From Gammaproteobacteria bacterium (GTDB lineage Bacteria > Pseudomonadota > Gammaproteobacteria > DATFLL01): DNA of 64,000 bases. Within the stretch, counting starts at the first letter, position 1. Each line of letters starts with the position of its first letter. Below, piece by piece: positions 4,326-56,841 of the stretch. The notes beneath the pieces were generated by a model that worked only from the letters and a program-made list of their open reading frames with translations, ran no database searches and was not told where the DNA came from. Location of the stretch: positions 12,817 through 76,816 of the forward strand of contig DATFLL010000042.1 in the NCBI GenBank assembly GCA_035267785.1. Direction: 5' to 3'. The position numbers and the translations under genes were made by a program.

Positions 4326-5530
4326 ATGACACGCATCGGCACTCCCCTCTCGCCCTCGGCCACCCGCGTCATGCTGCTCGGCAGCGGCGAGCTGGGTAAG
4401 GAAGTCATCATTGCCCTGCAGCGCCTCGGCGTGGAAGTCGTCGCTGTCGATCGCTATCCCAACGCGCCGGCCATCAGGTCGCCCACCGAGCGCACGTCAT
4501 CGACATGACGGACGGCGCAGCGCTGCGGGCCCTGGTCGAACAGGAACGACCCCAGCTCATCGTGCCGGAGATCGAGGCGCTGGCCACCGACGAGCTCGCC
4601 CGCATCGAGGCCGACGGCCTGGCCGAGGTAATCCCCGTGGCGCGTGCCGCGCAGCTCACCATGAACCGCGAGGGCATTCGCCGCCTCGCCGCCGAGGAGC
4701 TCGGTGTGCCCACCTCGCGCTACGCCTTTGCCGAATCGCTGACCGAGCTCCAGTCCGCCATCGACGGCGGCATCGGCTATCCCTGTATCGTCAAACCGAT
4801 CATGTCCTCCTCGGGCAAGGGCCAGTCGACCATACACGGTCCCGACGACGTCAAGGCGGCCTGGGACTATGCGAAGAGCGGCACACGCGTCGATCGCGGC
4901 CGGATCATCGTCGAACAGATGATTCAGTTCGATTACGAGATCACCCTGCTCACGGTGCGGGCCGTCGCCGACGGCGGCGAGGTGGGCACCTACTTCTGCG
5001 AGCCGATCGGCCACCGCCAGGAAAAGGGCGACTACGTGGAGAGCTGGCAGCCCCAGCCCATGAGTCCCACGGCCCTGCAGCGCTCGCAGGAGATCGCCGC
5101 GGCCGTCACCGCCAACCTCGGCGGACGCGGTATCTTCGGCGTTGAGTTGTTCGTCAAGGGCGACGAGGTCTGGTTCAGCGAGGTCAGCCCCCGCCCGCAC
5201 GACACGGGCATGGTCACCATGGCCTCACAGTGGCAGAACGAGTTCGAGCTGCACGCGCGAGCCATTCTGGGGTTGCCCGTGTCGACCGAACTGCGCAATG
5301 CCGGAGCCAGCTCCGTGATCTACGGCGGGGTCGATGCCGAAGGCATCGTCTTCGACGCCGTGGACATCGCCCTGCGGGTGCCGCGCACCGACCTGCGCCT
5401 GTTCGGCAAGCCCGAGTCCTTCACCCGCCGGCGCATGGGTGTGGCCCTGGCCTACGGCGAAGACGTCGGGGACTGCCGTGAGCGCGCCCGACAGAGCGCG
5501 GCGGCTGTCACGCCCGGTTCGGATCGCTGA
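4326..5530 (+). CDS. purT: phosphoribosylglycinamide formyltransferase 2 (PurT), reading frame interrupted by an apparent 1-nt deletion near 4472-4475
   Basis: ORFs 4326..4508 and 4505..5530 together match PurT end to end: [11 protein letters not shown] near the N-terminus, the ATP-grasp core, and [12 protein letters not shown]. Inserting one G after GCCAT at about 4473 restores the conserved [13 protein letters not shown] segment. Confidence 0.85.
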
Positions 5531-6666: not shown

Positions 6667-7602
6667 TCAGCGCACGAGGATCTGGTCGCCGTGGCCCATC
6701 TTCGGATCGGCGTCCTTGCTGAACATGATCACCGCGATGGCACCGGTCAGGGCCTGCTTCAGAGAATGGCTGACGATGGCGTTCGCGCCTTCCTTCGGCG
6801 AGATCAGATCGAAGATCGCCGCATCGCCCGGACCGACGACATAGCTCTGCATGCCGCGGAAGACGTTGTGCGGATTGCCGCTCGGATAGACCCGGTCCCA
6901 GATGCCGGCGATCGGATGGAAGGACGAGAACTCGTTCGGACCCGCATTGACGAAATAGATGCGTACGCGCTCACCCGGCTTGGCCTGCAGCCAGGTCTTG
7001 GCATTCGGATCGTGAACCGGGTCGTAGCGGAACAGTCGGCCATTGAACACGACGTATTTCCACTTGTTGGCCATCATCTCATTCTTGTCGTCGGGATGCG
7101 GGTAGATCTCCGATTGGATAAGCACGTACTCGCGATCGGCCTTGGGCATGGCCTTGGGATCCTTCGGGTCAACGATGATGACGCCGAACATACCGCGGGC
7201 GATGTGCTGGATCATCGGGTCGGCCCCGCAGTGGTAATAGAACACGCCCGGCTTCGTCGCCACGAAATCGAAGGTTTTCTGATGCCCCGGCTTGATAGGA
7301 CTGAACTCATCCACGACGCTCACGCGTGCGGCATGGAAATCGATGGAGTGCGAGTTCTTGTTGTGCTTATCGTTGATCAGGGTAAAGTGAACGGTATCGC
7401 CCTGTGTGACACGCACCACCGGTCCGGGCACCTCGCCGTCGAAGGTCCAGGTGGCGTACATGGTGCCCTTGTTGTCGATCGGCTGGTCCGTTTCCTTGGC
7501 GTGCAGCGTCACGTTGACAGTCTTGGCCGCGGCGGCCCCGCTCGCGACCAGTGCCGCCGCGAGTACGGCGGCCGTTCCCCAAAACAGCTTTCTTGTATTC
7601 AT
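6667..7602 (-). CDS. nirK: copper-containing nitrite reductase (NirK family)
   Basis: Type-2 Cu motif HSIDFHAA, type-1 Cu site YYHC...H...GMFG, and a two-cupredoxin-domain size of about 311 aa. Signal peptide after MNTRK, with RBS AGGAGA upstream of the ATG at 7602. Confidence 0.85.
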   Translation of the reverse strand: MNTRKLFWGTAAVLAAALVASGAAAAKTVNVTLHAKETDQPIDNKGTMYATWTFDGEVPGPVVRVTQGDTVHFTLINDKHNKNSHSIDFHAARVSVVDEFSPIKPGHQKTFDFVATKPGVFYYHCGADPMIQHIARGMFGVIIVDPKDPKAMPKADREYVLIQSEIYPHPDDKNEMMANKWKYVVFNGRLFRYDPVHDPNAKTWLQAKPGERVRIYFVNAGPNEFSSFHPIAGIWDRVYPSGNPHNVFRGMQSYVVGPGDAAIFDLISPKEGANAIVSHSLKQALTGAIAVIMFSKDADPKMGHGDQILVR

Positions 7603-7621
7603 GCGTTGTTTCTCCTGGTGT

Positions 7622-8011
7622 TTACTTGGAATATCCGGGCCCGCACTTGCACACAACGCGCAGGTAGCTGACCAGTTCGTGAATCTGCTTGTCGCTCAGC
7701 ACCCCCTTCCAGCTCGGCATCAAAACCGATTTATCTACGGCCAGGCCGCCCTCGCGGATGGCCGTATACAGCTCCTTGTTCGGGATATCCGTCATCCCCT
7801 TTGCGTCCGAATGGTCGCGCGGCTGAACGGACATATGAGCGGCGTTGATGCCCTTGCCGTTTCGTTTGACCCCGTGACACTGAACGCAATAGGTGTCGTA
7901 GAGACGCTTGGCCTCTGCTTGATCGCCGGCCGCGTGCGCGTCAGTGGCGGATACGGTGCAGGCCAGTAACAGCGCAGTCGCCCCGAGGGCGTGGCGTAGT
8001 TGTCGATACAT
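7622..8011 (-). CDS. mono-haem cytochrome c (class I), NcgC-like
   Basis: Signal peptide and a single CVQCHG haem-binding motif, with a distal Met-rich region. Lies directly upstream of nirK. Confidence 0.8.
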   Translation of the reverse strand: MYRQLRHALGATALLLACTVSATDAHAAGDQAEAKRLYDTYCVQCHGVKRNGKGINAAHMSVQPRDHSDAKGMTDIPNKELYTAIREGGLAVDKSVLMPSWKGVLSDKQIHELVSYLRVVCKCGPGYSK

Positions 8012-8014
8012 CGT

Positions 8015-8701
8015 CTATTCCTCCTTGCCGTCGAGTGACATCAGGTAACCGGTTAATCGACCGAGATCTCGCGACGAGAGCTCGAGCCGCGGCATCCAGA
8101 CGTGCGGGTCGAACGCCTGTGGGTTCTTGGTGTAGCTGTAGATGTAATCCGGCTGGAGCCGCGCACCCGCGTCGTAGAGTTCCGGCCCGGACACGCCCCC
8201 TTCCCCGCGCGCACTCTGGTGGCAGGCCGCGCAACCACGCAGCTTGACAAAGAACAGCTTGCCGATGCGCCCGCCGGACGCCGATTTGGGTGCCGCGCCT
8301 GTCTCGATGTGGTCCTTCGCACCATGCAGCGTCATCAGGGTGTCGGCGACGGCCCTGGCCTGGGCCCCCGACAGAGGCATGTGCCGGGCCGGCTTCTTGG
8401 CGATAGTGTCGTCCTTAACGCCGGCGGCAACGGCCTTGCGGTAGAACACGCCTGCCGGTCGAATGACCGTCGGGTGCTGCAGCCAGCGCACCAGCCATTC
8501 GCGGCGAAACTTGTCACCGGCGTAGTAAAGGTCGGGTCCCTTTCGCTGCCAGATGTGGTCCAGTCCCTGCGCGGACGGCTTCTTGACGGCGTGACACGCA
8601 ATACACTGTGCATTGATGGTCTTCCAACCGTCCGCCGCGGATGCAGCCCCACTCGCCGCCAGCATGAGGGCGAGCCCGAGCAGTGATAGTCTTGTCTTCA
8701 T
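8015..8701 (-). CDS. di-haem cytochrome c, NcgB-like
   Basis: Signal peptide plus two CxxCH motifs (CIACH and CAACH). Confidence 0.8.
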   Translation of the reverse strand: MKTRLSLLGLALMLAASGAASAADGWKTINAQCIACHAVKKPSAQGLDHIWQRKGPDLYYAGDKFRREWLVRWLQHPTVIRPAGVFYRKAVAAGVKDDTIAKKPARHMPLSGAQARAVADTLMTLHGAKDHIETGAAPKSASGGRIGKLFFVKLRGCAACHQSARGEGGVSGPELYDAGARLQPDYIYSYTKNPQAFDPHVWMPRLELSSRDLGRLTGYLMSLDGKEE

Positions 8702-8722
8702 GTTCGCTCTCTCCTGTCTTGG

Positions 8723-9759
8723 CTATTTGATGGGGACGCCCTTGAACAGCTTGTTGTCGAAGATGCCGTAACCCTTTTTCAGGGATTCTTCATAGAAGAA
8801 GTTCGGCTCGTATTTTTTGTCTTTCCAGACATACCACTTGTCATTGCGGGGTACGCCCTCGTATTCGACGATGGTGATCATGCCGCCCATGGATTTGTCT
8901 CCGTTCATCGTGTGCGAGTCGACATGGTCATGAATGATCCACCGGCCGGGGTTGTTCGCTTCGAACAGGATGTCGTATCGCTCACCCGGACCGAGCAGGA
9001 TCGTGTCGGCCTTGTAGGGATTGGGCAGGGGATGACCGTCCTTGAAGGCGACAGTGAACACGTGCCCGTGGAGGTGAATGGAATGCACCAGATCGCCGGC
9101 ACCGATGAGGCGCAGACGGACGAAATCGCCCTTCTTGACCCGAATGGGCTGGTCCTCGGGAAACGCCTTGCCGTTGATGGTGAAGTAGTCGTAGACGTCT
9201 CCCGGCACGCCGCCGTAGCCGGGCTTCTGGGCCCACTTCGAGTCCCAGTCGTTGAACATGAGCACGAAGTCCTTGGTGACCTTCTTCTCCAGGGCCGTCG
9301 GTTCCTTGGGGTCGATGATCAGCGGACCCCACATGCCGCGCAGCACCACATGCTCGTTGACGTTGACGTGGCAGTGGTACCACATGGTGCCGGCCGGTGC
9401 GGCCACGAACTTATACGTGTAGGTGTCACCGGGCTCGATCGCCGCCTGGGTGACCTTGGGCACACCGTCGTTCTTCCAGGTATTCGTCTGGAACAGGCCG
9501 TGCCAATGAATGGTGTGGGTCAGGGTGGTCAGGTTCGTCACGTGCACGGTGACTTTATCGCCCTCCTTGACATGGATGAGCGGCCCCGGGACCTGCCCGT
9601 TATAGGCGAAGGTGTGAAACTTGATGTTCCCGACCAGCGTGGCGTTGGTGTCTTCGATGGTCATGTCGAACTCGCGGTCCTGGGCACGTGCGCCCAACGA
9701 GTACGCAGACGCCCCCAAGCCGAGCAGCAGTAGCAGTGCCGTTGCATTTATCTTCTTCA
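8723..9759 (-). CDS. two-domain multicopper oxidase, NcgA-like
   Basis: Copper-ligand motifs HWHG, WYHCH, HLHGH and HDHVDSH. Signal peptide MKKINATALLLLLGLGASA. ATG at 9759 with a GGGAG RBS. Confidence 0.85.
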
Positions 9760-9789
9760 TCTCGGGCTCCCGTCTGTTAAGGATGTGTA

Positions 9790-9812
9790 AACATGTATCT
9801 GGTGTACATCTT
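9790..9812. promoter_or_regulatory. NsrR/Rrf2-type operator-like 11-1-11 inverted repeat (AACATGTATCT-G-GTGTACATCTT) in the promoter region of the MCO/cyt c/nirK cluster
   Basis: Imperfect inverted repeat resembling the enterobacterial NsrR box AAGATGCATTT-N-AAATGCATCTT, about 30-50 nt upstream of the cluster start codon. Confidence 0.4.
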
Positions 9813-9992
9813 ATAGACCGGCGGAAGGCCTTGCGCAACCATTTGTTTTTGATGGATATTTGCCCTTGCTAATATTAGGGTCTTCTAACCCATGTTATTT
9901 CAGGAAAAGCGGGACCAATTTGAATGCGCCAGGCGGGAGTGCGGGAAGATCTAAACAGCGACAGCGAAAGGAAGGGGGCGGATAAACAGAAC

Positions 9993-10023
9993 GCCCCACC
10001 TGTGAAGGTGGGGCGTTTTTTTT
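9993..10023. terminator. strong stem-loop (GCCCCACC-tgtgaa-GGTGGGGC) followed by T8 on the + strand and preceded by an A-rich tract; likely a bidirectional or DsrE-gene terminator
   Basis: Perfect 8-bp GC-rich stem with T-run, located just 3' of the minus-strand gene that ends at 10039. Confidence 0.5.
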
Positions 10024-10038
10024 GTCGTACGATTCGGA

Positions 10039-10533
10039 CTACATGCCGGCGGACTTCGGCGGTGCCGGATGGATATAGGCCCAGCCCTGCGACTCGCGCA
10101 GGGTAATCTCGCCCACACCGGACGGCACCATGGTGATGAACGAATAGAGATGCTTGCGATCGATATGCTTCTCACGCAGCGTGTTGGAGCATTGCGCCAG
10201 GATCACACCCTCCTTTTTCAGGTGCTCGAGCTTCTTCTTGAAACCGTTGTTCTTGACGTAGACGTCGAAACCGTTGCTGTTGGCCAACAGCTCGACCTGG
10301 ATATGTCCCTTGACGCGAGGGTCGTTGAGCAGGTTTTCGATGTTGTTCAGCGTCTTCTTGATCGCATGATCGCCGCCGCTGTCGAGATGGAAGATGGCCC
10401 CATACTCGTGGTGCGGGTTGGCCGGCGCGGGCGTCGAAGTGGCGGCCAGGGCCGGACCGGCGGAAAACGCCAGTGCGGCGCCGACGATGCCCGCCAGGGT
10501 CGACAGCTTGGTACGCGGTAAAATACGTTTCAT
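10039..10533 (-). CDS. periplasmic DsrE/DsrF (YchN)-like family protein, putative
   Basis: Signal peptide, about 164 aa, and a conserved Cys in the motif ILAQCSNT resembling DsrE-like sulfur-relay proteins. Family assignment is tentative. Confidence 0.45.
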   Translation of the reverse strand: MKRILPRTKLSTLAGIVGAALAFSAGPALAATSTPAPANPHHEYGAIFHLDSGGDHAIKKTLNNIENLLNDPRVKGHIQVELLANSNGFDVYVKNNGFKKKLEHLKKEGVILAQCSNTLREKHIDRKHLYSFITMVPSGVGEITLRESQGWAYIHPAPPKSAGM

Positions 10534-10803
10534 GGAATATCTCCTTTGATGGTTATTGTTAGTTTTTCGTTATTGTTTAGACGATCGATCACCCGCGTCA
10601 ATTCGAGCGCAGGCAATCTAAAATCTTTAGACCCGCCAAGTTGCCGTTTGGTTCGTACGGTAGCGGCACCAAATCGTCAGCGGTTCCGCTTGAGTCGATT
10701 CTCGGGAAAGCGGCCGAGGCCGCTGATTGGGTGGGGAAGTTCCGTGCAGGAGCCCGCGTTCGAAGCACAACGGCCGCGAAGCCGCACCGAGCCTGATGTA
10801 GCT

Positions 10804-10862
10804 TGACAATTCCTCACGGAGGCCTAGTATGAATTCCTAACATATCTTTTATATACCGCTTT
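10804..10862 (+). promoter_or_regulatory. sigma70-like promoter (TTGACA-16nt-TAGTAT) followed by a second NsrR-like 11-1-11 repeat (AACATATCTTT-T-ATATACCGCTT, 10840..10862)
   Basis: The -35/-10 hexamers match consensus. The downstream repeat shares architecture and about 16 of 22 positions with the 9790..9812 site. Lies upstream of the ferredoxin/reductase/truncated-haemoglobin fusion gene. Confidence 0.35.
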
Positions 10863-10949
10863 AAGAAGCTCCGGCCCAAGCCTGCCATGGGATAGACCCA
10901 GTATCCGTCGCCCATGCCCCGCCCGGAATCCACGTCAACCGGATGGGTC

Positions 10950-12536
10950 ATGCGTATGTCGAAACTGGTCTACAACGACGTCTCGTATGAACGGGGCAAA
11001 CACGAGTCTGTTCTGGACGCGCTACTGCGCCAAGGCGTCAACGTCCCCTTTTCCTGCCGCCGCGGCAGCTGCCAGGTCTGTCTGATGCGCGCGACGGCGG
11101 GCGACGTGCCCGAGGACGCGCAGCGCGGACTGCGCCCGGAGTTGCGTGCGTTGGGCTATTTCCTGCCCTGCCAGTGCGTGCCGGCCGGCGATTTCGACGC
11201 GGCGCCGCCGCGGGACGCGGACCTGTACGTCAAGGCCCTGGTCCACGACAAGGAGCGGGTCGCCCCCGACGTTGTCCGGCTGCTGCTCGAGGTCGGCTTC
11301 GGCTTTCATTATCGTGCCGGCCAGTTCGTCAACCTGCGCCCACCCGGCGGTCCGCCTCGCAGTTATTCATTGGCCAGCCTCCCCGAGGACTACTTCCTCG
11401 AGCTGCACGTCAAACGGATGGAAAACGGCCTGGTCAGCGGTTGGATCCACGATTCCGTGCAGATCGGCGAGGCGGTGGACATTCAGGGGCCGCAGGGCGC
11501 CAACTACTACCTCAGCGGCGACCCGACGCAGCCCCTGCTGCTGGTGGCCTCGGGTACGGGTCTGGCGCCCCTCATAGGTATCGCGCGCGACGCGCTGCGC
11601 GCCGGCCACACCGGGCCGATGCACCTCTACCACGGCGCCCACGAGGAACAGGGACTGTACCGCCATGACGAGCTCAAGGCACTGGCCCGCAAGTATCCTC
11701 AGGTCCAGTACATCCCATGCGTGTCCGGACCCGGCGGCGCCCCGCCGGAAGCCGCGGCCGGCCGGGCCGAGGACGTGGCATTCGAGCGCCAACCGGACCT
11801 GAGCGGCTGGCGTGTCTACCTGGCCGGTCCGCCGGAGATGGTCGAGAGCGGGTGCGGGCGTGCCGCGCGCGCCGGAGCGCACCCCTCGCAGATACATGCC
11901 GACCCGTTCGAGTACCGTGACCTGCGCCAAGGTGGCGTGTCGAAAGTCAGCCTGGAGGACGAACGCCGCCGCGACCCGCCACCCGACCCCGAGCTGTGGG
12001 CCGCGCTCGATGACGGCCGCCTGCTATTGGAGATACTGCGGGACTTCTATTCGCGGGTTTATGCCGACCCGCGTCTGTCTCCCTTCTTTCATGGCGTTAC
12101 CATGCAGCGTCCGATCGAAAAACAATATCTGTTCCTCAAGCAGGTGTTTTCGGGCGAGCCGGTCTATTTCGGCGACCGCCCGCGCAATGCGCACCACTGG
12201 ATGGTGATTTCCGACGATCTCTTCGACTACCGCGAGGAGCTCATGATGACGTGCGTGCGCGAGCACGGCCTGCCCGAGAATCTCGTGCGTCGATGGCGCG
12301 CCATCGAGGAGATCTACCGCCCGGATATCGTGAAATCCGCCCCCTGGACCCGACGCATCGGCGACATCGAACTGCCGGTAGAGGGCTTCGGCGAGGAATG
12401 CCTGAGCGCGGCGACGATTTGCGACGGCTGCCAGGCCGAAATCGACGCCGGCGAGACCGTGCGCTACCACCTGCGCCTGGGAACGACCTACTGCCGTGCA
12501 TGCTCGGGCGACAAACCCTTGGCCGAACGGCGCTGA
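10950..12536 (+). CDS. multidomain oxidoreductase: plant-type 2Fe-2S ferredoxin / FAD-NAD(P) ferredoxin-reductase-like domain / group II truncated haemoglobin (HbO-like) / C-terminal CxxC...CxxC zinc-ribbon
   Basis: Ferredoxin: SCRRGSCQVC...LPCQC. Reductase: RSYSLAS FAD-binding and GTGLAPL NAD-binding motifs. trHb: FYSRVYADPRLSPFF...NAHHWMVI with a proximal His. Tail: CDGC...CRAC. Confidence 0.8.
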   Translation: MRMSKLVYNDVSYERGKHESVLDALLRQGVNVPFSCRRGSCQVCLMRATAGDVPEDAQRGLRPELRALGYFLPCQCVPAGDFDAAPPRDADLYVKALVHDKERVAPDVVRLLLEVGFGFHYRAGQFVNLRPPGGPPRSYSLASLPEDYFLELHVKRMENGLVSGWIHDSVQIGEAVDIQGPQGANYYLSGDPTQPLLLVASGTGLAPLIGIARDALRAGHTGPMHLYHGAHEEQGLYRHDELKALARKYPQVQYIPCVSGPGGAPPEAAAGRAEDVAFERQPDLSGWRVYLAGPPEMVESGCGRAARAGAHPSQIHADPFEYRDLRQGGVSKVSLEDERRRDPPPDPELWAALDDGRLLLEILRDFYSRVYADPRLSPFFHGVTMQRPIEKQYLFLKQVFSGEPVYFGDRPRNAHHWMVISDDLFDYREELMMTCVREHGLPENLVRRWRAIEEIYRPDIVKSAPWTRRIGDIELPVEGFGEECLSAATICDGCQAEIDAGETVRYHLRLGTTYCRACSGDKPLAERR

Positions 12537-56620: not shown

Positions 56621-56841
56621 GGCGCATCTCCTGGTTGCATTCGCCCGGCCAATGGCCCGGGCGTCGGGTCTGTCTGAGGTAACCATAGGCGCGGATCGCA
56701 GTTTCCTATAGCAACATAGATTTCATAATGTGGTACACTATAAGCAAGGATAAGGCTTACTTCATATAACTTATTGTTTTATTGGTTTTTCGCTCCAACA
56801 TATGCCACGATAAACAATCGATTTCATATCGCGAAACGCTT

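Follow-up and report, generated by a model that had tools for sequence, protein, structure and literature searches.

Two sites resembling the operator of the nitric oxide (NO) sensor NsrR lie 1 kb apart in a 64-kb stretch of DNA from an uncultured gammaproteobacterium (contig DATFLL010000042.1; “the window” below means this whole stretch, whose guanine–cytosine (GC) content is 64.7%). Site 1 stands before the operon ncgABC-nirK, which includes the gene for a copper nitrite reductase, and site 2 stands before a gene that encodes a ferredoxin, a reductase and a truncated globin in one polypeptide (the fusion protein). The joint explanation favoured here, to which we assign a probability of about 0.65, is that site 1 serves as the operator of an NsrR-type repressor encoded at an unlinked position, and that site 2 is an operator of lower affinity for the same protein. 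For site 1 taken by itself, the motif and its location make the assignment as a predicted NsrR-type operator very probable.

Site 1 (AACATGTATCTGGTGTACATCTT) was located exactly at positions 9790..9812, as given in an earlier note on this DNA, and belongs to the minus strand, where it reads AAGATGTACAC-C-AGATACATGTT in the orientation of the gene. It is an 11-1-11 inverted repeat of the NsrR operator type (AAGATGYATTT-N-AAATRCATCTT), agreeing with the consensus AAGATGYATTTNAAATRCATCTT at 17 of 22 positions and with the core gATGyAT-N5-ATrCATc, the NsrR motif of Rodionov et al. 2005 (PMC1274295), at 12 of 14; its arms are symmetric at 7 of 11 positions.

Two matrices served to score the window. 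One, for 19-mers, derives from 85 sites of gamma- and beta-proteobacteria in the supplementary table of Rodionov et al. 2005 (PMC1274295); the other, for 23-mers, derives from the 13 distinct sites of E. coli CFT073 that a chromatin immunoprecipitation sequencing (ChIP-seq) study gives in its Table 4 (PMC5320621), a few of which had no ChIP-seq peak. Site 1 is the best match of the window with both. With the 19-mer matrix it reaches 13.0 bits (runner-up, 6.6 bits), and with the 23-mer matrix 18.1 bits (next besides site 2, 8.2 bits); the training sites of the latter range from 16.9 to 31.3 bits. The probability of such a score at a random position, matched for AT content and composition, is 3e-5 with the 19-mer and 1e-5 with the 23-mer matrix. 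Taken singly, the half-site scores are ordinary within the window, and what is unusual is the presence of two half-sites in the correct inverted arrangement. The likeness of site 1 to the NsrR box, claimed before from the letters alone, is thus borne out by both matrices as well as by the core and consensus counts.

The 23-mer matrix was calibrated on 949 kb of the other fetched loci, in which 13 matches scored at least 15 bits. Eight of these are boxes that belong to promoters of ncgA, nsrR or fusion genes; the remaining five fall in loci of 39–48% GC, and none was found at a GC fraction of 0.5 or more. That the 19-mer matrix is conservative can be seen in lineage L099: its ncgA box, which has nsrR as a neighbour, reaches 17.4 bits with the 23-mer matrix and only 9.6 bits with the 19-mer one.

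The genes placed behind site 1 form the operon ncgA-ncgB-ncgC-nirK (6667..9760, minus strand), recognised by its Pfam domains and by its collinearity with Nitrosomonas europaea. It consists of ncgA for a multicopper oxidase (8723-9760), ncgB for a dihaem cytochrome c (8015-8701), ncgC for a monohaem cytochrome c (7622-8011) and nirK for the copper nitrite reductase (6667-7602), all on the minus strand. The products of ncgA, ncgB, ncgC and nirK are respectively 65, 48, 54 and 72% identical to the N. europaea proteins, the gene order is the same, and each of the four collinear genes is the reciprocal best match of its N. europaea counterpart.

A sigma-70 promoter for this operon can be read at 9810..9838 on the minus strand, as TTGCGC (9838-9833), a 17-nt spacer and TATAAG (9815-9810). 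We infer it from the sequence and from its conservation in lineage L084, an orthologue with 82% identity in NcgA, which keeps the arrangement TTGCCA-17-TATAAC with the box following as in the window. Site 1 overlaps the last 3 bp of the putative -10 element TATAAG and the presumed ncgA transcription start, extending from about -9 to +14. Site 2 begins 8 nt past the -10 element TAGTAT of its own gene. Both sites therefore occupy the position, at or just downstream of the -10 element and the presumed start point, in which they had been placed before, between a -10 element and a gene.

The position of site 1 is conserved well beyond the species. Loci of ncgA orthologues were fetched via exact-protein look-ups, and in six of the seven lineages with DNA (the window included) a box stands 34-55 nt upstream of the ncgA ATG. 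The five others that carry it at the matching position are N. europaea (L085, 65% identity in NcgA), L087 (71%), the Thiobacillus lineage L093 (70%), L099 (67%) and L084. An Rrf2-family gene is adjacent and divergent in the first three of these and adjacent and co-directional in L099, where another box precedes the Rrf2 gene. Three of these Rrf2 genes, those of L085, L087 and L093, were scanned against families, and the best match of each is NsrR (NF008240). The box of L084 reads AACATTCACAT-A-ATATGAATCTT, with arms symmetric at 9 of 11 positions, and no adjacent Rrf2 gene is seen on its contig, which reaches only 158 bp upstream of ncgA. The seventh lineage, L090 (68%), has neither a box nor an adjacent Rrf2 gene. 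In a four-way alignment, the invariant columns are essentially T.TATAA.AT..A.A....AT...T...CTT, which is the box with the abutting TATAA, and the flanks have diverged. Site 1 thus has counterparts at orthologous promoters, several of them beside an NsrR gene.

For the N. europaea operon, NsrR repression is an experimental result (Beaumont et al. 2004, as cited in PMC1274295). The statement of the earlier note that nsrR adjoins the repressed operon there was confirmed, and the two boxes that we recovered at this locus are the sites listed by Rodionov et al. 2005.

Several other features of these promoters deserve mention. The L084 box (118-140 of its contig) has the cores ATTCA...TGAAT, compared with ATGTA...TACAT in the window, a symmetric change on both sides at a conserved operator position; the same symmetric G-to-T / C-to-A variant was described for Neisseria NsrR sites by Rodionov et al. 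(PMC1274295). In L093, at about 4945-4985, the NsrR box lies within a perfect palindrome with 15-nt arms (GTAATCTATAAGATG ... CATCTTATAGATTAC), far longer than the canonical 11-1-11 repeat, and a second box of 16.5 bits (L093:4535) is found where the neighbouring Rrf2 gene starts. In the GC-rich lineage L099, boxes at 2251-2273 and 2946-2968 precede the Rrf2 gene and ncgA, which suggests autoregulation together with control of the operon.

Upstream of the putative ncgA -35 element, the segments 9835-9856 and 9869-9879 (TCCATCAAAAACAAATGGTTGC and CCTAATATTAG in gene orientation) are nearly identical in L084, the other intergenic sequence being diverged. The first of them, TCCATCAAAAACAAATGGTTGC, contains the inverted repeat CCAT-N9-ATGG; taken as an NsrR box it has a score of just 0.3 bits, and it could be an UP element or the site of a second factor. 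Two further candidates were set aside. One is an alternative palindrome with GTAC at its centre (9796-9815): on reading of the sequence, L084 has not kept it, whereas the 11-1-11 arms retain there the symmetry given above. The third-best 23-mer of the window (56752-56774, 8.2 bits), which precedes an IclR regulator beside a phosphoketolase-like gene, was treated as noise.

Site 2 (AACATATCTTTTATATACCGCTT) is present as earlier described, one base to the left of the coordinates 10840..10862 given at that time: its true position is 10839-10861, on the plus strand. It is a degenerate NsrR-like 11-1-11 box, AACATATCTTT-T-ATATACCGCTT, that agrees with the consensus at 16 of 22 positions and with the published core at 9 of 14. 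It occupies approximately +3 to +25 of a sigma-70-type promoter of the fusion gene, TTGACA-16-TAGTAT (10803..10830, plus strand; 10 of 12 positions in a consensus scan), and its core begins 10 nt after TAGTAT (10825-10830). With the 23-mer matrix site 2 scores 15.5 bits (P ~1.1e-4) and is second in the window, the third match having 8.2 bits.

Further, though partial, support comes from the homologues of the fusion gene. In L094, whose product is the closest homologue (65% identity), the promoter TTGACA-16-TAGCAT is followed 11 nt later by the box GATGTATTGTAGATGCAGC, which scores 17.0 bits with the 19-mer matrix, and MAFFT aligns site 2 in register with it. A 17.3-bit box in L009 (Thiohalophilus) has the same relation to a TTGACA promoter, and L024 combines a 19.9-bit box (23-mer matrix) with a divergently adjacent nsrR. 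An NsrR box was found in these three of about 85 fusion-homologue promoters. E. coli NsrR has also been reported to bind degenerate sites and half-sites. From its sequence and setting, we consider site 2 to be a probable weak operator.

For site 1, repression is the most likely mode of action by analogy with the NsrR family. An Fe-S cluster-containing NsrR-type repressor of the Rrf2 family, encoded elsewhere in the genome, would bind site 1 as a holo-NsrR dimer seated on the 11-1-11 inverted repeat from -9 to +14. The bound dimer would cover the end of the -10 element and the start of ncgA transcription, so that RNA polymerase would be blocked. NO, or nitrite acting indirectly via NO, would nitrosylate the cluster, the repressor would leave and ncgABC-nirK would be switched on, as happens in N. 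europaea. At site 2, the same protein may bind with lower affinity just past the start of the strong fusion-gene promoter, and the production of NO by NirK and its removal by the globin would then be derepressed together. In this scheme the motif matches, their rank in the window, their closeness to the promoters and their positional conservation are observed; which protein binds, where transcription starts, what the effector is and in which direction it regulates are inferred.

Several observations weigh against the joint explanation. The regulator gene is, as had been claimed, absent from the window: six Rrf2/NsrR/IscR queries were run against the 64 kb with tblastn, and the best match had E = 0.9. 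The hexamers of the ncgA promoter are weak and lie below the threshold of the consensus scan. Both boxes are invariant in the same-species contigs L081-L083, which are about 99% identical to the window, and at this identity the invariance is weightless and has no footprinting power. With the 19-mer matrix site 2 scores only 2.4 bits in its stated register, rising to 4.2 bits when the register is moved left by two bases, which is not significant (P ~0.0035 per position); its arms are symmetric at 5 of 11 positions, its left half-site has a C in place of the conserved A, and about 80 other fusion-gene homologues were scanned with no NsrR box found. The likeness of site 2 to an NsrR box, asserted in the earlier note, is consequently upheld by the 23-mer rank and weakened by the 19-mer score and the core count. 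The disagreement of the two matrices here arises from the AA...TT flanks and from the greater degeneracy that the E. coli Table 4 sites tolerate.

With respect to the missing regulator gene, published regulon tables contain many NsrR targets with no nsrR alongside (PMC1274295), and an unlinked nsrR would therefore be unremarkable here. The regulators that partial domain scans found in the window are of the IclR and TetR types and are about 46-48 kb distant. Other signals were also looked for in the two intergenic regions: no FNR/DNR/NnrR-type box and no sigma-54 / NorR-type promoter was found in either, and Rfam gave on the region only sub-threshold matches, all due to a terminator hairpin at 9988-10019.

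These properties of site 2 give substance to the most serious competitor, in which only site 1 is real, site 2 is an AT-rich leader with a chance or decayed likeness, and the fusion gene is constitutive or otherwise controlled. At the 19-mer probability cited above, about 0.4 matches as good as site 2 are expected per 130-bp promoter region, the palindrome is poor, either half-site alone is unexceptional in the window and most fusion homologues lack the box. Nor does the similarity of the two sites help: they are identical at 15 of 23 positions, and shuffled promoter regions reach at least 15 in 47% of trials. We accordingly rejected their mutual similarity as evidence, although the sharing of most positions had originally been offered as support. 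On the other side, site 2 is the second-best 23-mer of the window by 7 bits, false positives of at least 15 bits are very few in GC-rich DNA, it is in register with the strong box of L094, whose product is the closest homologue, and it fronts an NO-related gene 1 kb from site 1. On balance, we regard this competitor as rather unlikely, and the joint explanation with two operators is retained.

A different objection accepts the boxes and assigns them to another regulator, either an Rrf2 paralogue other than NsrR or some unrelated dimeric repressor that replaced NsrR once this lineage had lost the adjacent gene. Both the window and its closest relative, L084, are without an adjacent Rrf2 gene; a MerR-family gene lies upstream of ncgA on a sister contig of L084, and the Neisseria-type variant of the L084 box indicates that the specificity drifts. 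However, lineages in which an NsrR gene is adjacent have a matching box at the matching position, and the published tables already mentioned show many NsrR targets that do not adjoin nsrR. MerR-type promoters have spacers of 19–20 nt, which the 17-nt spacer of the ncgA promoter does not fit. We consider such a replacement highly improbable. That neither site is an operator, and that AT-rich promoter and leader DNA simply matches an AT-rich consensus which in a 65% GC genome favours intergenic DNA, is barely credible given AT-matched random probabilities of 1e-5 (site 1) and 1e-4 (site 2), the fact that these two sites alone reach 15.5 bits among 1,339 low-GC 23-mers of the window, and a site 1 position kept across six lineages whose surroundings have diverged.

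The fusion gene itself was taken from public gene calls as 10950..12536 on the plus strand (528 aa); the longest open reading frame (ORF) begins at 10914 (540 aa). An exact-protein look-up with the 540-aa form gave no match, because the public records start the gene at 10950. The public calls and the alignment of homologues place the start at 10950 or two codons later, which leaves a leader of about 110 nt behind the presumed transcription start. Contig L083 differs from the window at two positions between the -10 element and site 2, within 10831-10838 (TTATGCATTC vs TTAGGAATTC, written on the gene's opposite strand); its promoter hexamers and site 2 box are the same as in the window, and the differences overall are too few to inform.

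Pfam recognises Fer2, FAD_binding_6, NAD_binding_1 and Bac_globin in the protein, corresponding to a 2Fe-2S ferredoxin, a FAD-NAD(P) reductase and a truncated globin. From this domain architecture, we suppose that it is a putative self-sufficient NO dioxygenase. It is no orthologue of the flavohaemoglobin Hmp, the match being confined to the reductase part and below the cut-off. The haemoprotein had been called novel, a description that cannot be kept: a search of the protein collection gave over 1,270 homologues of identical four-domain architecture at E <= 1e-50, many of them annotated as ferredoxin-NADP reductase/ferredoxin/truncated haemoglobin, and 224 loci with homologues (all at no more than 55% identity) were found in the genome collection. 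The family is therefore a widespread one.

Between the two sites lie a terminator and a separate gene. The hairpin at 9988..10019 has a strong stem of 12-14 bp with T-rich runs on either strand and is read as a bidirectional terminator between the ncgA promoter and the neighbouring DsrE-like gene; it shows that site 1 belongs to an independent promoter. The neighbour is a 164-aa ORF (10039-10533, minus strand), which had been described as DsrE-like from its letters. This description is confirmed by PDB fold matches to the DsrE-like structures MTH1491 (E = 5e-16) and ST0148; Pfam and NCBIfam scans of the ORF gave no match. By eye the protein has an apparent N-terminal signal peptide. None of the other fetched loci was found to have this ORF close to ncgA or to the fusion gene. 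A promoter-like element of its own, TTGACG-18-AACAAT (10601 to 10572), precedes the gene, and just upstream of this element there is an unexplained palindrome, TCTAAA-ATC-TTTAGA (10617-10631).

Comparison with known systems shows how far the arrangement departs from its precedents. The NsrR-nirK circuit of N. europaea is already known, and the one difference here is that the regulator gene is non-adjacent. The four-gene operon, the box type directly upstream of ncgA and the promoter-proximal position implying repression are shared, and the N. europaea box AAGATGTATCT-A-ATATACACCAA can be set against the gene-orientation sequence of site 1 given above. In N. europaea, nsrR is divergently adjacent and a second box lies 93 nt upstream, whereas the window has a single box before ncgA and its 64 kb contain no Rrf2 gene; the neighbour here is instead the presumably periplasmic DsrE-like protein. 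The hosts differ as well, N. europaea being a betaproteobacterial ammonia oxidiser and the host of the window a GC-rich uncultured gammaproteobacterium.

For site 2, the nearest precedent is the glbN-lpg2536 pair of Legionella pneumophila (truncated globin and ferredoxin reductase), which was predicted to be the sole NsrR target of that species (PMC1274295). Gardner's review uses this prediction to argue that, in NO dioxygenation, truncated globins are served by FNR-type reductases (PMC3820574). The two systems, likened here by description, have in common a truncated globin and an FNR-type reductase behind a predicted NsrR box with NO dioxygenation as the proposed function. The Legionella pair is unfused, whereas in the window the 2Fe-2S ferredoxin, the reductase and the globin form a single 528-aa protein. 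The Legionella box GATGTATTTcAAATACATC is a near-perfect palindrome beside nsrR, in contrast to the degenerate site 2, which has no nsrR as a neighbour.

The enterobacterial NsrR regulon (hmp, ytfE, hcp and others) shares with the window the 11-1-11 architecture and the overlap with -10/+1 for repression, and differs in its targets and in the AT-rich centre of its boxes, the centre of site 1 being GC-rich (CACCAGA). Against the E. coli CFT073 range of Table 4, the score of site 1 lies within and that of site 2 just below.

One may go further and suggest that an unlinked NsrR coordinates a compact divergent island of NO homeostasis composed of ncgABC-nirK and a three-domain NO dioxygenase, in which the globin operator would be weak by design and would fire at a lower NO level than that of nirK, the fusion family acting as an NsrR-regulated substitute for flavohaemoglobin. 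We offer this extension tentatively, with the odds somewhat against it.

The analysis implies no new regulatory principle and represents an ordinary extension of a known regulon. The NsrR-nirK circuit, known from betaproteobacteria that oxidise ammonia, would by this account also operate in an uncultured gammaproteobacterium of high GC content, in which the predicted operator persists though the adjacent regulator gene has been lost. The possible inclusion of a globin-reductase fusion in the regulon would parallel the published prediction for the unfused pair, and it gives a testable hint that a common, uncharacterised family of ferredoxin-reductase/truncated-globin fusions may be NO-detoxifying enzymes under the control of an NO sensor.

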